From contig JBAZZE010000001.1 of assembly GCA_041658955.1 (NCBI GenBank), positions 16,676 to 80,675 on the forward strand: a DNA stretch of 64,000 bases, read 5' to 3'. Source of the DNA: Candidatus Shapirobacteria bacterium (GTDB lineage Bacteria > Patescibacteriota > Microgenomatia > UBA12405). A program made the position numbers and the translations under genes. Below are positions 5,225 to 32,964 of the stretch, piece by piece. Within the stretch, counting starts at the first letter, position 1; the number at the start of each line of letters is the position of its first letter. The notes under the pieces were generated by a model. It worked only from the letters and a program-made list of their open reading frames with translations, did no database searches and was not told the DNA's origin.

Positions 5225-5298
5225 GGGCATGTAGCTCAGTCGGTTAGAGCACCGATCTTATAAGTCGGGGGTCCATGGTTCGAGTCCATGCATGCCTA
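5225..5298 (+). tRNA. tRNA-Ile (anticodon UAU)
   Basis: Acceptor GGGCATG/CATGCCT, D-arm GCTC-AGTCGGTTA-GAGC, anticodon stem CCGAT/GTCGG with loop CTTATAA (U33, then TAT, then A37), 5-nt variable loop, T-arm CATGG-TTCGAGT-CCATG. Confidence 0.7.
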
Positions 5299-5301
5299 CT
5301 T

Positions 5302-24726: not shown

Positions 24727-25413
24727 ATGGGTTACGCTGGAAAAATAGCCGAAAGAGAACTGGCAATTTCACTAAGAAAAAAAGGATATTCTTATAACCA
24801 AATTCAAAAATCTACTGGGTTGTCAAAAGATACTATATCTAGAACTTGTAGACAGGTTATTTTGACTAAAGATCAAATAAAAAATCTTGAAACACGAAGA
24901 ACTGCAGGTCAGATGTTGGCTTCAATTAAAGGTGCAAAGTCAAATCAGCTTAAGAAAGAGATCATACAAAAACAGTTATTAGAAGAAGGGGTCCGGCAGG
25001 TAGGTGAGTTAACTCGAAGGGATAAGTTCATATTTGGCATTTCACTTTATCTTGGTGAAGGCTCGAAAACAGGAAGCGCAGTTGAGTTTACTAATGCAGA
25101 CCCCATAGCTGTTAAGTTCATGCTCAATTGGTTCGTTGAATTCTGTGAAATACCTCAGGAAAGTATCAAGGCCAGTCTTTGGATTCATGACAACCTGAGC
25201 GAACCTGAAGCCAAAAAATATTGGTCAAATTTATTGGGCATCGAAATATCACAATTCGATAAGTCCTATATTGCAAAAAACAGGGTAGATAGTCGAAAAA
25301 TACGCAAAAATATTCACAAATATGGAATAATAAAGATTCGATACTATAGTGTAGCCAAATTACGCCTTATATTAGGTTGGATAAAGGGTGTACTTTCTAG
25401 TTACTCAGGATGA
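24727..25413 (+). CDS. HTH-domain protein with a LAGLIDADG-like segment (possible free-standing homing-endonuclease-like gene)
   Basis: N-terminal HTH (GYSYNQIQKSTGLSKDTISR). A central segment FIFGISLYLGEGSKTG resembles a single LAGLIDADG motif. The gene ends 40 bp upstream of the intron-containing tRNA. Confidence 0.35.
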   Translation: MGYAGKIAERELAISLRKKGYSYNQIQKSTGLSKDTISRTCRQVILTKDQIKNLETRRTAGQMLASIKGAKSNQLKKEIIQKQLLEEGVRQVGELTRRDKFIFGISLYLGEGSKTGSAVEFTNADPIAVKFMLNWFVEFCEIPQESIKASLWIHDNLSEPEAKKYWSNLLGIEISQFDKSYIAKNRVDSRKIRKNIHKYGIIKIRYYSVAKLRLILGWIKGVLSSYSG

Positions 25414-25452: not shown

Positions 25453-25737
25453 TCCCCCTTAGCTCAGTGGTAGAGCGCTCGCCTGTTCCTATAGAGCAGC
25501 TTTCACGAGTAATCGTGATCGAAAATCGGGAGAATTGCGTGAAACCTAACCTGTCGCAAGACAATATGGCAACCCGCAGCCGAGCTCCAACTTTGGTTGG
25601 AGAAGGTTCAGAGACTAGGTGAGTACACCTTTAAGCACCCGAGTCCCATTTATGGGATATGATATAGTCCAAGCCTGTTAGAAATACAGGATTTACTTGT
25701 AAGCGATTGGTCCGAAGTTCGAATCTTCGAGGGGGAG
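25453..25737 (+). tRNA. tRNA gene interrupted by a 213-nt group I intron; exons give tRNA-Asn (GUU) on the most likely junctions
   Basis: 5' exon 25453-25486 (acceptor TCCCCCT, U8, A9, D-arm GCTC-AGTGGTA-GAGC, anticodon stem CTCGC, loop C-T-G-T). 3' exon 25700-25737 (T-A-A, GCGAT, variable TGGTC, T-arm CGAAG-TTCGAAT-CTTCG, acceptor AGGGGGA, discriminator G). The exon ends in U and the intron ends in G, as group I splicing requires. Confidence 0.7.
25487..25699 (+). ncRNA. Group I self-splicing intron (ORF-less) in the tRNA anticodon loop
   Basis: Conserved core elements are present: P AATTGCGTGAAA (25533-25544), Q AACCCGCAGC (25571-25580), R GTTCAGAGACTA (25606-25617, exact consensus), S GATATAGTCC (25661-25670). 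P1 pairing CUGU/GCAG with U.G at the 5' splice site; terminal G at 25699. Confidence 0.7.
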
Positions 25738-25842
25738 CATATTAAAAAAGTCCGTCAAAAAATGACGGATTTTTTAATATCTTCTTCCAAAAGTTCCAAT
25801 TCACTTTAGTGAGGGGAGTTTATCCACCGTGGCGGAAATCCT
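25735..25842 (+). repeat. Repeat copy A (tRNA 3' end plus about 100-bp trailer)
   Basis: GAGCATATTAAAAAAGTCCGTCAAAAAATGACGGATTTTTTAATATCTTCTTCCAAAAGTTCCAATTCACTTTAGTGAGGGGAGTT... This is near-identical to copies B and C. Confidence 0.8.
25744..25776. terminator. Bidirectional intrinsic terminator in the tRNA trailer
   Basis: AAAAAAG-TCCGTCA-AAAAAA-TGACGGA-TTTTTT: a 7-bp stem flanked by an A-run and a T-run. Confidence 0.5.
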
Positions 25843-25902
25843 CGAGGGGTGCTTAACAGAAAGATATGGTGCTAGAGTAAAAAACTAAGAACTAAAAAGA
25901 GG

Positions 25903-26052
25903 ATGTCTCAGCTGGAATTGGATCAAAAAGCCCAGCTAGATTTAACTACCATAAACGAAATTAAGAACGGTAATAGGGAGCCGATGCTAAGAATAATTTG
26001 GAGAATTTCCAACAATTTGGACATACCACTAAATAAGCTTTTTGAACTCTGA
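25903..26052 (+). CDS. XRE-family HTH regulator (49 aa; below the ORF-track size cutoff)
   Basis: MSQLELDQKAQLDLTTINEIKNGNREPMLRIIWRISNNLDIPLNKLFEL has the Cro/CI-type HTH pattern. It is the first gene after the repeat. Confidence 0.5.
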   Translation: MSQLELDQKAQLDLTTINEIKNGNREPMLRIIWRISNNLDIPLNKLFEL

Positions 26053-26129
26053 CTTCACAGAAAAGGATTTACTCTCACGTATTTTATACTATCCAGTATT
26101 GCTAGAGCTATAATCGGTTAGATATTAAC

Positions 26130-26708
26130 ATGAAAAAACAGGCAAAAAACTTAATACCAATAACTGAAGAAGATATTCAAGAATTTATTAGGCAAGCAGA
26201 GCTAATCTCTAAATGTAGCTATCTTAAAAACCCAGTTAAAAAGATAAACATCACCTATGACATGTCTAAAGGTCTAAATTTTGGCGGAGATATACCCCCA
26301 AGGGAGAGTGTTGACTCCTTTTTAATGATTTTAAGGCCTTTTATTGAATATAGAGAAAGACTTCATGTTGGACGCATAATTTCGTATCTTGAAGATACAC
26401 ACGGAAAGGCTGAAATGTTAAGTAAAGCGAGAACCTATCTTGATGCAAAAAGCCAGTTTCCTGTTGTTAAGATTGGAGAAAAGACTTATGGAGCAAATGA
26501 GATGATGTATTTGTACCTATATGGCAAATACTTCCATCTTGAAGAAGCTAAGCAGAAAGCATACCGATTAATAGAAGAAAATCTAGGCTACTACGGAGAA
26601 TTTACTGCCCTAAGCCAATTAGAGCGCTTTGCTGGAATAGTTTTAATGGTAGCGGGGGTTGTTAAAAGGTATGATAGAAATTTAAGTCAAAATGACAATT
26701 ATACATAA
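26130..26708 (+). CDS. Hypothetical protein (island 1 gene 1)
   Basis: ORF with no motif I recognise. It sits in a tightly packed same-strand operon. Confidence 0.4.
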   Translation: MKKQAKNLIPITEEDIQEFIRQAELISKCSYLKNPVKKINITYDMSKGLNFGGDIPPRESVDSFLMILRPFIEYRERLHVGRIISYLEDTHGKAEMLSKARTYLDAKSQFPVVKIGEKTYGANEMMYLYLYGKYFHLEEAKQKAYRLIEENLGYYGEFTALSQLERFAGIVLMVAGVVKRYDRNLSQNDNYT

Positions 26709-27390
26709 TCAAATTAATAGATTTTGGTCGAAGCCTACATATGAAAATTTTAAAAAACACGGCTTCGTAAAAAAAGTTTTTACTATAAATGACTCTGAAG
26801 AGTTTATTAAAACCGGAGCGTATCTCGTTGAAGAAGCTATAAAACAAATGAACTCTCACATTCCGTGGGATGAATCTAGAAAGTTTGAAATTTTATTGCA
26901 TCCAAGATTAGAAAATATTTTTTTGGCCTTAGGGACAGAATATTTCTTAAAGGGGATTTTATTAGCCAAGGGATATGCGATAAATAAGCCAAAGATGGGA
27001 ATTAGCCTCGCTCACCCAATCCCAGTTTCAAGTAATAAGACTAAATTGTTGAAAACAGAAGTTCAAGACCTTTCGTACATAAAAGACCAAATAATACGAA
27101 CGGTAGATTTTTCTGATTTCGATAAATCACAAGAATCAGAAAAAATAAAAGAAAAAAAAGTCAACAAAGGAAAGGGAGTTCGAGGAATAACCAGTCTTTC
27201 CGTACCCCATCCAACAGCAAAACAAATATTGGATTACCTGCATTTCAAAAGAAACTTCTCATTACACCGCCCTTTTATAATTTCAGAATTTAGCGGAATT
27301 GTCCAACAAGAGCTGAAAATACTAAATTATATTGCTCAAAAAGAAACGGGGGAGACAATTAAAAAACTATCTTCAATTATCCACGAGTGA
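26692..27390 (+). CDS. Hypothetical protein with a C-terminal HEPN-like RNxxxH motif (island 1 gene 2)
   Basis: C-terminal segment HFKRNFSLHRPF gives R187-x4-H192 (nt 27250-27267). Confidence 0.4.
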   Translation: MTIIHNQINRFWSKPTYENFKKHGFVKKVFTINDSEEFIKTGAYLVEEAIKQMNSHIPWDESRKFEILLHPRLENIFLALGTEYFLKGILLAKGYAINKPKMGISLAHPIPVSSNKTKLLKTEVQDLSYIKDQIIRTVDFSDFDKSQESEKIKEKKVNKGKGVRGITSLSVPHPTAKQILDYLHFKRNFSLHRPFIISEFSGIVQQELKILNYIAQKETGETIKKLSSIIHE

Positions 27391-27397
27391 ACAGCCA

Positions 27398-28528
27398 ATG
27401 AAAAAACACAACACCCTTGTCTTAATGCCGTATCTGCCACTTGAGGGACTTATTAAATTTGATGGCTTACAAATATGGTCATATCAAAAACTCGGAAATA
27501 CTTTGATAAAAAATACTGCATTAAAAAACCACATAGATAAATTAGTTGGTTGTTACCAGCTTCATAAGGGAAATAAAATACAAAATCCAGCAATAGTTTC
27601 AGGCAGTAAGATTTGCTTCACAAATCCAACACAGCTCACTATCTCAAAAATAGAAGTGTTGAAGAATATTCTTTTGTTTCTTGGAATTCTTGAAAACAAC
27701 AGTTGGTCATTTATTACCAGCGATAACTTTGAGGTTTTCTATCAACGATTTGTTGTTGGTGATTCTGGATTAGCTACACAGGCGGGCGCAATTCACCATA
27801 TTACTTCTGGAGGCTATTCAATTGATGAAATGATTTTTCTTAAACCAGAGTGCATCAACCTACCACTAAGGTTTAATCCAAACGGACCAATATTTAGAGC
27901 ACTAGAGGATTGTATGGTACAGTCACGCAGCAGCCAAGATAAAAGTCAAATTATTCAGTCATTGAACCCATTGTTTAACGCTTACAGAAATAGTCACGAA
28001 CATTCTTGGCAATCACGCATTTTGTTAATCGTAATGGCGTTTGAATTACTATTTGGCGAAACCGAAAGAAAAAATTTTCGCAAGAATATTCAAAAATACT
28101 CAACACTAGGATTAAATAAGTTGTCAAAAACTTACAAGTACCCAATTATGGACACAAGAAATGGAAAAGTGATCGGATATGAAGATCTTACCCTAAATCA
28201 AATATGGGCTGAAGAATTTTATAAATTACGACATAAAATAATTCACGGAGACACGATTTATAGTGACGACTCCATTTTCACAGATCTAGTCGTAAATAAA
28301 GTACCAAAAGAACCCCATTTTTATATAGCTATTAACTTTTTTGTTGTTTGCCTACTCAACAATTTGAGAGAATTAGGTTATCAAAACATAGAGCACTATG
28401 TAATAAATTCCGATTCATCAAAAGTAATATTCAACAAGGTTATTTCAGGTATTAAGGATGAGCTTTTTAAAATCGAAGATATTGGTTTATATGACGCAAT
28501 ATCCAACAACATTCCTGATGAACAATAA
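27398..28528 (+). CDS. Hypothetical protein with a HEPN-like Rx4HG motif (island 1 gene 3)
   Basis: YKLRHKIIHGD at about 28220-28252. I placed the start at ATG 27398, just after the upstream stop; the ORF-track start at 27332 overlaps the previous gene by 59 nt. Confidence 0.4.
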   Translation: MKKHNTLVLMPYLPLEGLIKFDGLQIWSYQKLGNTLIKNTALKNHIDKLVGCYQLHKGNKIQNPAIVSGSKICFTNPTQLTISKIEVLKNILLFLGILENNSWSFITSDNFEVFYQRFVVGDSGLATQAGAIHHITSGGYSIDEMIFLKPECINLPLRFNPNGPIFRALEDCMVQSRSSQDKSQIIQSLNPLFNAYRNSHEHSWQSRILLIVMAFELLFGETERKNFRKNIQKYSTLGLNKLSKTYKYPIMDTRNGKVIGYEDLTLNQIWAEEFYKLRHKIIHGDTIYSDDSIFTDLVVNKVPKEPHFYIAINFFVVCLLNNLRELGYQNIEHYVINSDSSKVIFNKVISGIKDELFKIEDIGLYDAISNNIPDEQ

Positions 28529-28577
28529 GATAATCGTTAGTTGTCAATAGGGTAGTAAATAGGGTTATAATTCCGAC

Positions 28578-28889
28578 ATGGATAAAAGTAAAAAGGTCGA
28601 ATTACTTGATACAAAAATAAGCTTTATTGAAGAATTGGCAGGCGAATACAACCCCAACAATCTTCGGCAGTGGCGAGAAGAAACACTTATGATTTTAGAC
28701 AATTTAATTACAGTTGAATCAAAATACTACACCAATTTCGAAGATATTAGATATGTGTCTGGTGTAATAACTCCTATGGATAGTGTTGGTAATTCGGAAA
28801 GAAACAAAAAGTCTTACTTTGCAGGTTTAGAGAGGGCAAAAAGTTCATTGAAGGCAATTGTTTTTGGCATTCAAAACGATTTAATCTAA
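28578..28889 (+). CDS. Hypothetical protein (island 1 gene 4)
   Basis: ORF only. Confidence 0.35.
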   Translation: MDKSKKVELLDTKISFIEELAGEYNPNNLRQWREETLMILDNLITVESKYYTNFEDIRYVSGVITPMDSVGNSERNKKSYFAGLERAKSSLKAIVFGIQNDLI

Positions 28890-28893
28890 AAAA

Positions 28894-29517
28894 ATGAATA
28901 CTGAAGACGATGTAAAAGAACTAATATTGAAATATCTTTATGACTACAATAAGAAAAAGGGGCTGTGGACCACTCCATTGAAAGTTGTTTCAGATATAAA
29001 GTCCCCGGAGGTAGATAAAGTGCAAATATTAAACAATATTTCATATTTGATTGGAGAAAAATATATAAATAAAAAAACAGTAAAGACAAAAGGTTGTGTT
29101 GGCGGTACGATAACCTTTGAGAAAATAATTATTTCAAATAAGGGAATTCAACATTTTGAAGACTCCAAGTTCTCAGTAAAACAGTTCTCCTCAATCAATA
29201 TTCAATCAGTACAAGGATCGAATAATGTCTTTATTTTGGGTGATCAAACCGGAACAATTAACCAAACGGTCGGAAATTCGATTGCGGAACTTGATAAATT
29301 GATTGATCAAATCAAGAGTCAAGAATTGTCAGTCGATAAAGAAAGAGAGTTGATTGGGGATGTTGAGACTATCAAAAGTCAGTTAATAAAGCCAAGTCCT
29401 TCTTCTCAAATAATAAAAATTGCATGGCTAGCATTAAATGGAGCCGCAACTTTATCTGGTTCACACGACCTGATGTTGAAAATTGGTATGTTGCTGCAAC
29501 AGTATCTGACACATTAA
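28894..29517 (+). CDS. Hypothetical protein, possible N-terminal winged-helix plus coiled coil (island 1 gene 5)
   Basis: ORF; the N-terminal ~70 aa resembles a wHTH by pattern only. Confidence 0.35.
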   Translation: MNTEDDVKELILKYLYDYNKKKGLWTTPLKVVSDIKSPEVDKVQILNNISYLIGEKYINKKTVKTKGCVGGTITFEKIIISNKGIQHFEDSKFSVKQFSSINIQSVQGSNNVFILGDQTGTINQTVGNSIAELDKLIDQIKSQELSVDKERELIGDVETIKSQLIKPSPSSQIIKIAWLALNGAATLSGSHDLMLKIGMLLQQYLTH

Positions 29518-29524
29518 GCCATAC

Positions 29525-29971
29525 ATGATTTACGTAATTGGAGTCGGTCACACTATCCAGCACGATAGCCTTCACTTTTTTGGTGAAACTCATGAATATA
29601 TAGCCAAGTTAAGGCAGTTGGTACATGATAATAATATTCAACTTATTGCTGAGGAGTACTCTAATGAAGCTGCCAGAATGGACCAAGTCACCGATTCAGT
29701 TACTAAAATAGTTGCTGATGAGCTAGGAGTTCCACACAGATATTGTGATCCCGATTCGGCTGAGCGAAGATCAATTGGATGTCATTCAAGTGACGATGAT
29801 CATTTAAGACTTGGCAATTGGTTTGATAAAATTTACGACAAGGCAAGAGAGCAAGTAATTTTTGTTTGCGGAGACAGTCATAAAACTGACTTTGCATCCT
29901 TAATTGCAGGAAATGGATTTGAAGTCATGATTGTGGAAAATAGTTTTATCACCAAAGTTGACAGGACATGA
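29525..29971 (+). CDS. Hypothetical protein (island 1 gene 6)
   Basis: ORF only. Confidence 0.35.
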   Translation: MIYVIGVGHTIQHDSLHFFGETHEYIAKLRQLVHDNNIQLIAEEYSNEAARMDQVTDSVTKIVADELGVPHRYCDPDSAERRSIGCHSSDDDHLRLGNWFDKIYDKAREQVIFVCGDSHKTDFASLIAGNGFEVMIVENSFITKVDRT

Positions 29972-30018
29972 TCTTTCCAAGCTTCCGAAAAAGGCGACTT
30001 TGCTAGAAAGTATCTATT

Positions 30019-30666
30019 TTGATATCATATGATATGAAAAAGAAAAGACTTATAACATCGAGTTCTAGAGATTATCAGGAACTTTACTCGTATTTACATG
30101 ATAACTATAAAGACACGAAGCTTGACTCATTATCTAAAGTATTTTTGTCCATGTTTATTGTTTCTACTGCTGTTATTTCGCTTTTCTTACTACCTGGAAA
30201 TAATAGATTATTTTCCTCAATATTGTTTCCGACTAGCACCACATTAAACGATATATCGAAGATATCAAAGTTGGAGGATTCCGTGAAAAAACTTAGTACT
30301 GCGGTTGAATCAATTAACAACAATTTAATAAAAGACCCAACAAATACAGATCTAAAAAAAATTAGCATTAGAATGTCAGGATTAGAATCGTCACAAGAAG
30401 CACTTACTGAGACGATTCTAGAAAACCCAGATAAGGCACTAACATCAAAGCTGATCAGAGAAAAACAGATAATGGTTGAAAATGGAGTCGCAGAGATAAA
30501 GTCAAATTTGTCAAAACTAAACGACCGACTAGATAATATCGTTACAGCGTTAGTAGCTATTCCTCTTGGCGGATTTGTTTTATCTTTGGTTAGTACACTA
30601 ATATATTTTTTAATAAACAAAGGCAAAACTCATTCAGCTAAAAACAAAATATTAAAGAAAAGGTAA
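30019..30666 (+). CDS. Hypothetical coiled-coil protein with an N-terminal TM and a C-terminal TM (island 1 gene 7)
   Basis: N-terminal hydrophobic segment (FLSMFIVSTAVISLFLL), C-terminal TM, central heptad repeats. Confidence 0.35.
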   Translation: MISYDMKKKRLITSSSRDYQELYSYLHDNYKDTKLDSLSKVFLSMFIVSTAVISLFLLPGNNRLFSSILFPTSTTLNDISKISKLEDSVKKLSTAVESINNNLIKDPTNTDLKKISIRMSGLESSQEALTETILENPDKALTSKLIREKQIMVENGVAEIKSNLSKLNDRLDNIVTALVAIPLGGFVLSLVSTLIYFLINKGKTHSAKNKILKKR

Positions 30667-30939
30667 GCCAAGACATAGGGTGCTATTTTTAGTCTCGTCA
30701 CGACTTAAAAGTCGATCCAGAATTTACTTTCTTGATCCTTTTACCTAAATACTCATTCAATAGGGTTGTAATAGGGTATTTACGGTGCTTGCAGACCACC
30801 CCATACTTTTTAGGCACAAAGTCACTGCAAGCCTCCTGATTTCCAGCCACCGTTGTTTCATTTCTCCAAAGTATTTTAGCTCTGTTGGCCCATCAATAAT
30901 TGCCTGATAATTCGAGGTTGTGTTAATCGAATGATTGGG

Positions 30940-31048
30940 GAGCATATTAAAAAAGTCCGCCAAAAAATGACGGATTTTTTAATATATTCTTCCAAAAGTT
31001 CCAACTCACTTTAGTAAGGGGAGTTTATCCGCCGTGGCGGAAATCCTC
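30940..31048 (+). repeat. Repeat copy B, preceded by a decayed tRNA 3' end
   Basis: ...TCGAATGATTGGGGAGCAT followed by the same trailer as copy A. The match to A runs to AAATCCTC, with 5 mismatches. Confidence 0.8.
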
Positions 31049-31119
31049 TGGGGGGGTGAGCCTACTATTCAGAAAACCTACAACCGTAGCCTTCTATCGT
31101 ATAATAAGCCAATAGTTAT

Positions 31120-32166
31120 ATGAATATAAAAAATTTTGTTGGTTTAAAATTTCTTCGTTGGGCCATTGGTCTCTTTTTTGCTTTAGGTGCACTTGTATAT
31201 ATCAAAGAGAGCATTATCACTTCCGCTAGTTTTTTTCTTTTGACAATTTTTACCCTGCCTCCTTTATCTGATATTCCATCTTCAATAATCAAAAGACCAA
31301 TTAATAAACCAATTAAATTAATAATTGGTTTTTTACTATTTCTCATAGCTGTCAAGTTCACTCCTCCGGTATCTGAATCAAAAAGTAGCACTACTCAAGA
31401 CTCGTCTTCCGCCATTGCACTCACATCTATTCCTACTATTACTTCCACCCTAACTACAATCCCATCAATATCACCTACCCCAACCACAAATCCTCATCTC
31501 GCCAGAATGGTCAGAGTAGTTGACGGCGATACAATAGTGGTTAAAATTAACAGCCAGGAAGAAACAGTCAGGTTAATTGGTATCGATACTCCGGAAGTAG
31601 TTGACCCCAGGAAACCAGTCCAATGTTTTGGAAAAGAAGCTTCAGAAAAGATCAAAGAATTAATTCAGGGTAAAAGCGTAATTCTAACTCCAGATCCTAC
31701 TCAGAATGATAAAGATAATTACGGTCGACTTTTAAGATATGTTTATCTTGAGGATAGTACTTTCATTAATAAAAAAATGATTGAAGAGGGTTATGCTTTT
31801 GAGTACACCTACAGTATTCCTTACAAATACCAGTTAGAGCTTAAAGAATCCCAAAGACAAGCAAAGACAAACAAACTCGGACTATGGGCTGACAACGCCT
31901 GTCCGACAAACACTCTAGTCCCTACCAAAAAACCCACTTCACTACCACAGTCGACCGCTGTCCCTCAAAAACCCTCATCATCAACGAATACTAATGTTGC
32001 ACCTGCAGACACTTCATCACCCGGTGGTTCTTGGGCTTGTGACTGTAGTAAAGCTTGTGGGGTGATGTCATCATGTGCTGAAGCTCAATATCAACTTAAT
32101 TCCTGCGGGTGTCAGGCAAGGGATGGGGATAAAGATGGAATAGCTTGCGATAGTGACTGTCAATGA
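31120..32166 (+). CDS. Secreted thermonuclease (SNase-like) with a C-terminal Excalibur Ca-binding domain
   Basis: N-terminal TM/signal, S/T/P-rich linker, SNase core VVDGDTIVV ... RLIGIDTPE ... YGRLL ... GLW. C-terminal CAEAQYQLNSCGCQARDGDKDGIACD is Excalibur-like (DxDxDG). Confidence 0.7.
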   Translation: MNIKNFVGLKFLRWAIGLFFALGALVYIKESIITSASFFLLTIFTLPPLSDIPSSIIKRPINKPIKLIIGFLLFLIAVKFTPPVSESKSSTTQDSSSAIALTSIPTITSTLTTIPSISPTPTTNPHLARMVRVVDGDTIVVKINSQEETVRLIGIDTPEVVDPRKPVQCFGKEASEKIKELIQGKSVILTPDPTQNDKDNYGRLLRYVYLEDSTFINKKMIEEGYAFEYTYSIPYKYQLELKESQRQAKTNKLGLWADNACPTNTLVPTKKPTSLPQSTAVPQKPSSSTNTNVAPADTSSPGGSWACDCSKACGVMSSCAEAQYQLNSCGCQARDGDKDGIACDSDCQ

Positions 32167-32333
32167 AAGACACAGTAATTGTGTTATCGTGACCGCACAC
32201 CACCTTCCAAATTTCTTCTAACGCTGGGAGCATTTGTACTACATACATATTAGGATAGAACGATTTTTGTACTTTTTAGCGGTAAATTGGTATAACAAAG
32301 TCTCGAGAAATTAGTGTTACCATATTTTAAAAT

Positions 32334-32750
32334 ATGGGCAAATTTAGAAAAGAGCCTCCAGTATTATCAACTAATATTGTAGGAAAAGTGGTAGCGACTG
32401 AAGAGGGAAATTTATTTAATGGTGAACCTATTCAGGTTGTTGATAAAGCTAGTATTCCCGTAGATATGGAAGAAGCTTTGCGTAAGAGTCAAGAATATGC
32501 TGAGGCGATTCGGTTGCTGTCTGCTAGATTAGGTGTTGATCCTTTAGATCCTGATGGTATTTTAGATCCTGATGAGTTTGAATTACCAATTTTTTATAAT
32601 TCTGTTGGCGATTCAGTAGTTATCAAAGACGGTGTGCAAAAAGTATTAGATGGGGTTTATGTACCTAAAGTTCATTCAGTCACGCAGTTACCAGTAATTA
32701 ATGGTGATTTGTTTGTTTACGTAAAAAAGGAAGTGGACTCAAAAGGTTAA
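32334..32750 (+). CDS. Hypothetical protein
   Basis: ORF only. Confidence 0.35.
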   Translation: MGKFRKEPPVLSTNIVGKVVATEEGNLFNGEPIQVVDKASIPVDMEEALRKSQEYAEAIRLLSARLGVDPLDPDGILDPDEFELPIFYNSVGDSVVIKDGVQKVLDGVYVPKVHSVTQLPVINGDLFVYVKKEVDSKG

Positions 32751-32809
32751 AACATTTTTTAACTATACGATACATCCGGTAAAGTAGTAGGAAGATCGTT
32801 CCATAGTTC

Positions 32810-32895
32810 GAGCATATTAAAAAAGTCCGTCAAAAAATGACGGATTTTTTAATATCTTCTTCCAAAAGTTCCAACTCACTTTAGTGAGGGGAGTT
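32810..32895 (+). repeat. Repeat copy C, preceded by a deleted tRNA 3' remnant
   Basis: GTTCGAGCATATTAAAAAAGTCCGTCAAAAAATGACGGATTTTTTAATATCTTCTTCCAAAAGTTCCAACTCACTTTAGTGAGGGGAGTT, then diverges. Confidence 0.8.
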
Positions 32896-32964
32896 CAGTC
32901 CGATCGTAGCATCGGACAATCTTCGAGGTGGAGCCAGATATTTTTATCTTGATACAATGTTTAA

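Follow-up and report, generated by a model that had tools for sequence, protein, structure and literature searches.

Two unclassified HEPN families in a repeat-bounded, putatively defensive island at a split tRNA-Asn gene of a Candidatus Shapirobacteria bacterium

The DNA analysed here, referred to as the window, is a stretch of 64,000 nucleotides (nt) of contig JBAZZE010000001.1 from a Candidatus Shapirobacteria bacterium (GCA_041658955.1), and locus positions follow its numbering. Between 25903 and 30666 it holds eight closely spaced open reading frames (ORFs) on the + strand, designated G0 to G7. Two of them, G2 and G3, represent two unclassified families of the HEPN superfamily that retain the Rx4H catalytic-type motif. 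With moderate confidence, the surrounding segment 25850-30936 is explained as a horizontally acquired, repeat-bounded mosaic defence island with at least four cargo modules that are distributed independently, in which the HEPN proteins would act as latent RNases. The modules would be the truncated XRE remnant G0, the single gene G1, the HEPN genes G2 and G3, the G4-G5 pair, and the orphans G6 and G7. The genes are as follows (lengths in amino acids, aa):

G0: 25903-26052, + strand, 49 aa; XRE/HTH_3 protein without the first helix of the domain (Pfam HTH_3, E 3.4e-7).
G1: 26130-26708, + strand, 192 aa; member of an unannotated family of ~190 aa.
G2: 26692-27390, + strand, 232 aa; HEPN-fold protein ending in ...HFKRNFSLHRPF, with a KRNxxLHRPF motif (R187, N188, H192) and E83-x3-K87; predicted metal-independent RNase.
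G3: 27398-28528, + strand, 376 aa; contains ...YKLRHKIIHGD, an alpha/beta part (~1-160), a HEPN-like helical part (~163-325) and R278-x4-H283; predicted sensor-plus-RNase.
G4: 28578-28889, + strand, 103 aa; helical protein, first of the G4-G5 pair, matching PADLOC PDC-S35.
G5: 28894-29517, + strand, 207 aa; possible winged-helix N-terminus and helical C-terminal half, matching PADLOC PDC-M14B.
G6: 29525-29971, + strand, 148 aa; orphan with sub-threshold matches only.
G7: 30034 (or 30019)-30666, + strand, 210/215 aa; two hydrophobic segments around a coiled-coil-like middle; orphan.

All eight ORFs described in an earlier note on this DNA are present, and their proteins match exactly hypothetical proteins of a Candidatus Shapirobacteria metagenome-assembled genome (MAG) in public records. 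The intergenic distances range from -17 to +77 nt, and no terminator-like site or hairpin was detected inside the island, which makes co-transcription plausible; lying on one strand, G0-G7 are probably co-transcribed. For G3, the start was placed at the ATG at 27398 and not at an upstream TTG, because all homologs begin at the equivalent position. The same ATG is also chosen by gene callers on identical contigs.

Considered alone, the catalytic-type motif is weak evidence, since shuffling either G2 or G3 yields a bare Rx4H about 25% of the time and R[NDH]x3H in 3-5% of cases; the support comes from conservation and fold. HEPN domains are defined by a conserved Rx4-6H with a polar residue (N, D or H) right after the arginine, and helix 2 of the domain supplies a second acidic residue that is conserved, usually in the form E-x3-[KR] (PMC3710099). 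The polar residue after the arginine is present in both proteins, as N in G2 and as H in G3. In the alignment of 25 G2 homologs (43-88% identity), neither R187 nor N188 varies, and at least 90% of the 25 sequences retain H192, the sole exception being a chimeric-looking sequence. E83 and K87 of the E-x3-K element are likewise invariant and lie inside helix 61-92 of the structural model. Regarding G3 (26 homologs, 29-73% identity), there is no variation at R278 or H283, and the residue following the arginine is H, N or D; E216 (helix 204-219) is nearly invariant, but without K or R at +4. The second Rx4H of this protein (RNSHEH at 197) is not conserved.

The same picture emerges from AlphaFold2 models, which were built on the family alignments, with helices read from the DSSP strings. 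The predicted local distance difference test score (pLDDT) and the predicted template modelling score (pTM) are 86 and 0.85 for G2, and 87 and 0.88 for G3, so both models are confident. Both models contain a four-helix alpha-helical core resembling solved HEPN domains; Foldseek with the complete G3 chain gave no match. In the G2 model, helix 176-190 is followed by H192 in a loop and then by helix 201-219, and in the G3 model R278 lies in helix 266-282, H283 comes directly behind this helix, and 307-325 is the next long one. In both arrangements the arginine occupies a helix end and the histidine the start of the next loop, matching the superfamily description. The earlier recognition of HEPN-type Rx4H motifs in these two genes is thus borne out, both by conservation across the aligned homologs and by the HEPN-like fold of the models.

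The N-terminal alpha/beta domain of G3 (~1-160) is also conserved and evolves about as fast as the HEPN part does. Within residues 1-160 (27398-27880), the strongly conserved stretches TSDNFE..YQRF and GGAIH.I..GGY surround a low-confidence loop at 129-137, and this disposition of conserved motifs suggests a ligand-binding or second active site.

Searches of the G2 and G3 families against Pfam, NCBIfam, PHROGs and PADLOC returned no match, apart from one G3 homolog touching HEPN_Apea (E 0.015). That G2 and G3 are diverged paralogs was rejected, as profile-profile comparison revealed no relation between them. For comparison, more than 30 related loci were fetched (numbered L003 ... L038), each of which was searched with all window proteins. 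A kinship of G3 with the Rx4H proteins of L025 and L030 was rejected, only the motif being alignable, and the 245-aa gene of L037, considered as a divergent G2, showed no relation to it.

One of the features that define the HEPN superfamily is metal-independent RNase activity that leaves 2',3'-cyclic phosphate ends (PMC3710099), and HEPN active sites are composite dimer sites (PMC13017515). The Rx4-6H residues are needed for both RNase activity and defence in PrrC, RloC and KEN (PMC3710099) and likewise in HEC-08 (10.1101/2024.01.29.577857) and RAZR (PMC13017515); for HEC-08, it is the histidine of the motif on which defence depends. By analogy with such characterised HEPN systems, G2 and G3 would each dimerise to form a composite metal-independent RNase site and would remain inactive until infection. 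Once activated, they would cut cellular and/or phage RNA and halt translation, resulting in abortive infection; on this analogy, we infer that both are latent RNases arresting translation on infection. The alpha/beta N-domain of G3 would sense the trigger or regulate the enzyme, like the zinc-finger domain of RAZR, and G2, a compact HEPN protein mostly located right beside another HEPN-type gene or right after a type I restriction-modification (R-M) operon, would add an RNA-targeting layer, in line with what has been proposed for HEPN genes linked to R-M. The G4-G5 pair would constitute a separate small module with a domain-level relation to PADLOC candidates. R187/H192 of G2 and R278/H283 of G3 offer concrete mutable targets.

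The island lies at the 3' end of a tRNA gene and is flanked by direct repeats, as is typical of an island-type insertion. The features that delimit it are the following:

tRNA-Asn(GUU): ~25453-25738, + strand; split right after the anticodon by a group I intron (~25488-25701), with the island at the tRNA 3' end.
Direct repeat copy A: 25732-25849, + strand, 118 nt; begins in the final 6-7 nt of tRNA-Asn and forms the left island boundary.
Direct repeat copy B: 30937-31054, + strand, 94% identical to copy A; right boundary of this island (island 1).
Direct repeat copy C: 32807-32924, + strand, 76% identical to copy A; right boundary of a second small insertion.

The intron is recognised by Rfam Intron_gpI at 25477-25691 (63.8 bits), and the intron-exon junctions given above are approximate. 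ARAGORN makes no call for this tRNA because the intron splits the gene. The exons equal the intron-less tRNA-Asn(GUU) of L011 (3191-3263), barring a few T-arm bases, which identifies the window tRNA as tRNA-Asn(GUU); trial splicing yields a 73-nt tRNA-Asn(gtt), brute-force splicing with ARAGORN being ambiguous by itself. In L011, which holds the closest relative of the element, a large serine recombinase gene abuts the same tRNA-Asn. The window holds no copy of the 118-nt repeat beyond these three, and chance would be expected to yield none, so the flanking direct repeats reported earlier are real. As for base composition, island 1 has 34.1% GC, lower than any other 5.1-kb stretch of the window (mean 38.2%, sd 1.6), at odds with the compositional sameness with the host that had been claimed for it. 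A phage or plasmid origin of the island was rejected on the basis of null searches: IMG/VR holds no relatives of G2, G3 or G6, and by tblastn G3 has no match in GenBank phage or PLSDB plasmids and G2 and G6 none in PLSDB.

Each repeat contains three hairpins, the third of which reads TCCACCGTGGCGGA in copy A and TCCGCCGTGGCGGA in copy B. In copy C, this third hairpin is swapped for another perfect hairpin, GTCCGATCGTAGCATCGGAC, the structure being conserved and the sequence altered. Copy A contains a bidirectional terminator-like hairpin, and every copy lies 41-66 nt 5' of the start of a + strand gene. Beyond being an att scar, the repeat may thus serve in regulation or recombination. The second repeat-bounded insertion (31055-32806) carries an SNase + Excalibur nuclease (348 aa, SNase E 1e-26), probably secreted, and a 138-aa ORF.

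Directly upstream of the split tRNA, a gene for a 228-aa HTH protein (24727-25413) has a 48%-identical homolog at L022 1268-1945. On this Woesebacteria contig, the homolog is followed by another intron-bearing tRNA and then by different cargo, including G2. The protein includes a LAGLIDADG-like 'LYLGEGSK' stretch, judged by eye only, and its gene may be a free-standing homing-endonuclease-like gene travelling with these introns.

Co-occurrence across the related loci reveals the modularity of the cargo. G2 and G3 are adjacent, with spacings from a 4-nt overlap to a gap of ~20 nt, in about ten distinct loci (window, L003/L020, L004, L005, L006, L011, L012, L018, L024 and L035). G3 is found without G2 in L007, L008, L009, L015, L037 and L038, and G2 without G3 in L021, L022, L023, L025 and L036. 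Where both are present, their degrees of identity to the window diverge: in L035, G1-G2 are 88% identical at the protein level and 86% at the nucleotide level, whereas G3 reaches 61% (protein); in L011, G3 is the closest known relative at 74%, whereas G2 reaches only 49%. When L035 1-2301 is aligned with window 26212-28528, nucleotide identity stops at 27443, 45 nt into G3, marking a sharp breakpoint of recombination where G2 and G3 meet. The G4-G5 pair occurs in three loci, namely the window, L011 (after G3) and L030 (after an unrelated 217-aa gene).

The recurrent adjacency of G2 and G3 would also be expected of an obligate two-component system, in which the two proteins would form a heteromeric RNase out of two unlike HEPN domains, or one HEPN protein would restrain the other in the manner of a toxin-antitoxin (TA) pair, with G1 and G4-G5 as accessories. 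The composite dimer sites of HEPN enzymes (PMC13017515) agree with such an arrangement, as does the fact that G2 mostly stands beside some HEPN-type gene, be it AbiU2-like (L025), a pair of DUF4145 genes (L011) or a gene with an RNGLSH motif (L022/L023). We regard this alternative as possible but unlikely, because each gene exists without the other in five to six loci, and the discordant identities in L035 and L011 are unexpected for tightly co-evolving partners. Furthermore, no fused G2-G3 protein was found among 109 homologs, the two profiles are unrelated, and both proteins retain complete catalytic motifs, so that neither looks like a degenerate inhibitor.

The neighbourhoods of the relatives are in line with the mosaic defence island. 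All named homologs come from Patescibacteria (Shapiro-, Roizman- and Woesebacteria, WWE3, Microgenomates), bar a few oddly labelled MAGs. In L023 and L036, G2 stands directly after HsdR-HsdM-HsdS on the same strand, followed in L036 by DUF5677, SIR2 and a serine recombinase; in L012-14, G2-G3 directly follow an N6_N4 methylase/MvaI_BcnI R-M pair within a block of conjugation genes. L011 carries a serine recombinase, HTH genes, a PD-T7-4/RAZR-like DUF4145 gene and a second DUF4145/HepT-like gene, and then G2-G3-G4-G5. Since G2 and G3 follow two DUF4145-type genes, L011 7474-11134 amounts to four consecutive HEPN-type genes, located on a serine-recombinase element at tRNA-Asn. In L025, an AbiU2 HEPN protein (E 5.5e-10) comes after G2, which is flanked by two further Rx4H-motif proteins, and in L022/L023 a protein with the RNGLSH motif lies beside G2. 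Other loci contain a Y1 transposase, TraG-like genes, a tyrosine integrase or a DNA methylase, and Fic-motif proteins (HPFxDGNGR, judged by eye) occur in L007 and L008. The conflict context that the earlier note assigned to the island is recovered in these mobile-element and defence neighbourhoods of G2/G3 relatives.

A DUF5677 gene adjoins G2/G3 homologs in three unrelated loci (L022 2483-3241, L036 8721-9491 and L037 6444-7265) and is absent from the window island. In L007 (11107-12297; WWE3), a G3 homolog is followed by an HNH-like gene starting at its stop codon and then by an MNT-like nucleotidyltransferase gene. This is the only locus with an MNT-like gene two genes downstream of a distant G3 homolog. 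MNT nucleotidyltransferases are the usual partner class of HEPN toxins; in G0-G7, no nucleotidyltransferase domain was found at E<=1 (Pfam, NCBIfam, PADLOC).

Many HEPN proteins are TA toxins or RNA-processing enzymes (PMC3710099), and relatives of G2 and G3 reside on integrative and conjugative elements and, in one case, among housekeeping genes. This is consistent with selfish addiction modules that would stabilise the mobile element, or with RNA-processing factors that would serve the RNA metabolism of the host, in either case devoid of an anti-phage role, a reading that we nevertheless consider improbable. No adjacent antitoxin-type gene, of MNT or any other known family, was detected in the window, and the relatives are repeatedly placed right after R-M operons and beside Abi-type genes. 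In addition, the patchy distribution and the shuffling of versions between loci suit conflict genes better than housekeeping genes.

A bolder proposal, to which we would give little credence, takes G2 as a shared HEPN subunit that would form heteromeric RNases with interchangeable partners (G3, the AbiU2-like protein, the RNGLSH-motif protein), and arrays of different HEPN genes at tRNA- and R-M-linked hot spots as a main innate immune strategy of the small-genome Patescibacteria. Such a heteromer would be a two-polypeptide counterpart to Cas13, which has two unlike HEPN domains.

It is very improbable that the XRE gene and the seven downstream genes make up one novel defence system of several proteins with an HTH as its gatekeeper, as originally proposed: the shared strand, the short gaps, the lack of internal terminator-like sites and the gene orders kept in L011 (G2-G3-G4-G5) and L035 (G1-G2-G3) would accord with it, but none of the more than 30 related loci holds all eight genes, G0, G6 and G7 appear in none of them, G1, G2, G3 and G4-G5 each keep other company elsewhere, a recombination breakpoint falls at the G2/G3 junction, and G0 is a truncated HTH, so that the single seven-gene system was rejected on co-occurrence.

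Returning to the mosaic defence island as the preferred explanation, several observations weigh against it. The tight spacing of G2 and G3 could reflect functional coupling rather than independence. One G3 homolog, in L038, is located among housekeeping genes, the sole such case. The repeats, standing 41-66 nt upstream of gene starts, could be regulatory spacers and not att sites. Very few homologs of G4-G7 were sampled, and no antitoxin-like partner (e.g. MNT) was detected in the window. Finally, Pfam and NCBIfam scans found no recombinase or integrase domain in G0-G7; the element has either lost its recombinase or never had one. The tRNA-integrated island of the earlier note stands as a variable, repeat-bounded insertion at a tRNA.

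Regarding the remaining cargo, G0 aligns with positions 10-55 of the 55 in the HTH_3 profile. It looks truncated because the initial ~9 positions are absent; an in-frame stop lies 27 nt upstream, and the gene is probably a remnant. With only 49 aa, a short N-terminus and conservation in no related locus, it lends no support to the role of gatekeeper once attributed to it. Homologs of G0, G6 and G7 were found in none of the related loci searched.

The G1 family (~190 aa), represented by 36 sequences at E<=1e-3, shares the conserved motifs RPF and YFH.D..KR; among 31 members there was no Pfam match, and only scattered single-member PADLOC matches (E>=6e-4). G1 adjoins G2 in the window and L035 only. 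Elsewhere, it either neighbours a Gabija-like OLD-Toprim/UvrD pair or is the only gene on its strand, with genes of opposite orientation on both sides. The idea that G1 is the equivalent of the DUF4145 genes, which occupy the same position in L011, was rejected, as no relation was found.

G4 matches PADLOC PDC-S35 with E 3.2e-7 over positions 1-98 of 264, and four models of PDC-M14B find a match in the C-terminal half of G5 (E 6e-7 to 4e-5). For G5, the Pfam DUF5457 match (E 5.5e-4) falls short of the cut-off, and just three homologs were found in 5.8 billion clusters. G6 touches ABC-3C CTD6 (E 0.086, 13.7 bits, cut-off 26.4) and a SAVED-type PADLOC model (E 0.002, sub-threshold); a role as ABC-3C or SAVED component was rejected in view of these sub-threshold matches and the absence of the required partners. 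The hydrophobic segments of G7 (~41-60 and 172-197 in the 215-aa reading) flank the coiled-coil-like region, in agreement with the earlier description of a coiled-coil last gene, and its Pfam scan gave coiled-coil matches only, all sub-threshold. Sequence searches of the PDB with G1, G5 and G6 returned nothing significant. G1, G2, G3, G6 and G7 are covered by no curated family or PADLOC system, in keeping with the earlier remark that no family was recognised; the PADLOC check that had been suggested gave the partial candidate matches of G4 and G5 and the sub-threshold one of G6. A type III TA-like RNA antitoxin or other structured RNA in the island was rejected, given that there are no tandem repeats and no Rfam match except the intron.

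Elsewhere in the window, at 5225-5299, ARAGORN calls a tRNA-Ile with anticodon UAU (tat), adjoining a tRNA-Met(cat). A tRNA-Ile(UAU) is an uncommon means of reading AUA in bacteria.

Patescibacteria, also called the candidate phyla radiation, possess tiny genomes, and reports of recognised defence systems in this group are few. The two HEPN families described here, with their conserved catalytic motifs, were seen almost only in Patescibacteria. Since Pfam, NCBIfam and PADLOC miss them, present defence-system censuses would overlook both families, and the seeming scarcity of defence genes in Patescibacteria may in part be an annotation gap. The expectation of a novel defence system holds as far as the new HEPN families are concerned. 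It does not extend to a new type of system, because HEPN RNase genes have been well described from defence islands, with many R-M-linked HEPN clades (PMC3710099). No new principle is shown, HEPN RNases in mosaic defence islands being already well known.

Among the known systems, ABC-3C (ABC-three-component) combines an ABC ATPase gene with genes for a middle component and a C-terminal-domain effector; the island has no ABC ATPase, and only G6 touches CTD6. The PADLOC defence candidates PDC-S35 (one gene) and PDC-M14 (two genes) derive from 'guilt-by-embedding' and are known as candidates only (10.1101/2024.01.29.577857). The PDC-S35 match of G4 is limited to the first 98 positions, G4 having 103 aa against 264 positions in the model. 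As for PDC-M14, the match to PDC-M14B is confined to the C-terminal half of G5, and no PDC-M14A partner was detected in the island.

G3 resembles ApeA and other Apea-like HEPN proteins, which are single-gene defence proteins, in its size class and in the order of an N-terminal domain followed by HEPN; ApeA as a system name reportedly goes back to Gao et al. 2020. In contrast, 25 of the 26 G3 family members, the window protein included, lack a HEPN_Apea match, the remaining homolog (E 0.015) falling short of the cut-off, and no PADLOC model matches. The window G3 itself gives nothing at E<=1 against the HEPN_Apea and PADLOC models. Judged by sequence, G3 is not an ApeA member.

PrrC/EcoprrI and RloC share with the island genes their association with R-M systems, as G2 follows type I R-M genes in L023 and L036 and G2-G3 follow the MvaI/BcnI pair in L012. 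They differ in that the island itself contains no R-M genes and no ABC/P-loop ATPase domain is present.

Among the systems closest to the island HEPN genes is HepT of the HEPN-MNT pairs (PDB 5yep, 7ae2, 8xdj). Unlike those pairs, the island has no neighbouring MNT antitoxin gene, and G2 differs from HepT by an N-terminal extension, an insert of ~60 residues and the lack of a match to the Pfam HEPN/HepT-like models.

RAZR/PD-T7-4 combines a zinc-finger sensor with a divergent DUF4145 HEPN RNase and acts by abortive infection; the N-terminal sensor domain of RAZR binds ring proteins of phages and shifts the position of HEPN dimers so that RNA is cleaved (PMC13017515). The N-domain of G3 is alpha/beta and not a zinc ribbon, and G3 matches neither the DUF4145 nor the PD-T7-4 model. 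The likeness lies in the layout, as both are single-gene units in which an N-terminal non-catalytic domain precedes a C-terminal divergent HEPN domain with R and H, and in L011 a RAZR/PD-T7-4-like gene stands two genes upstream of G2-G3.

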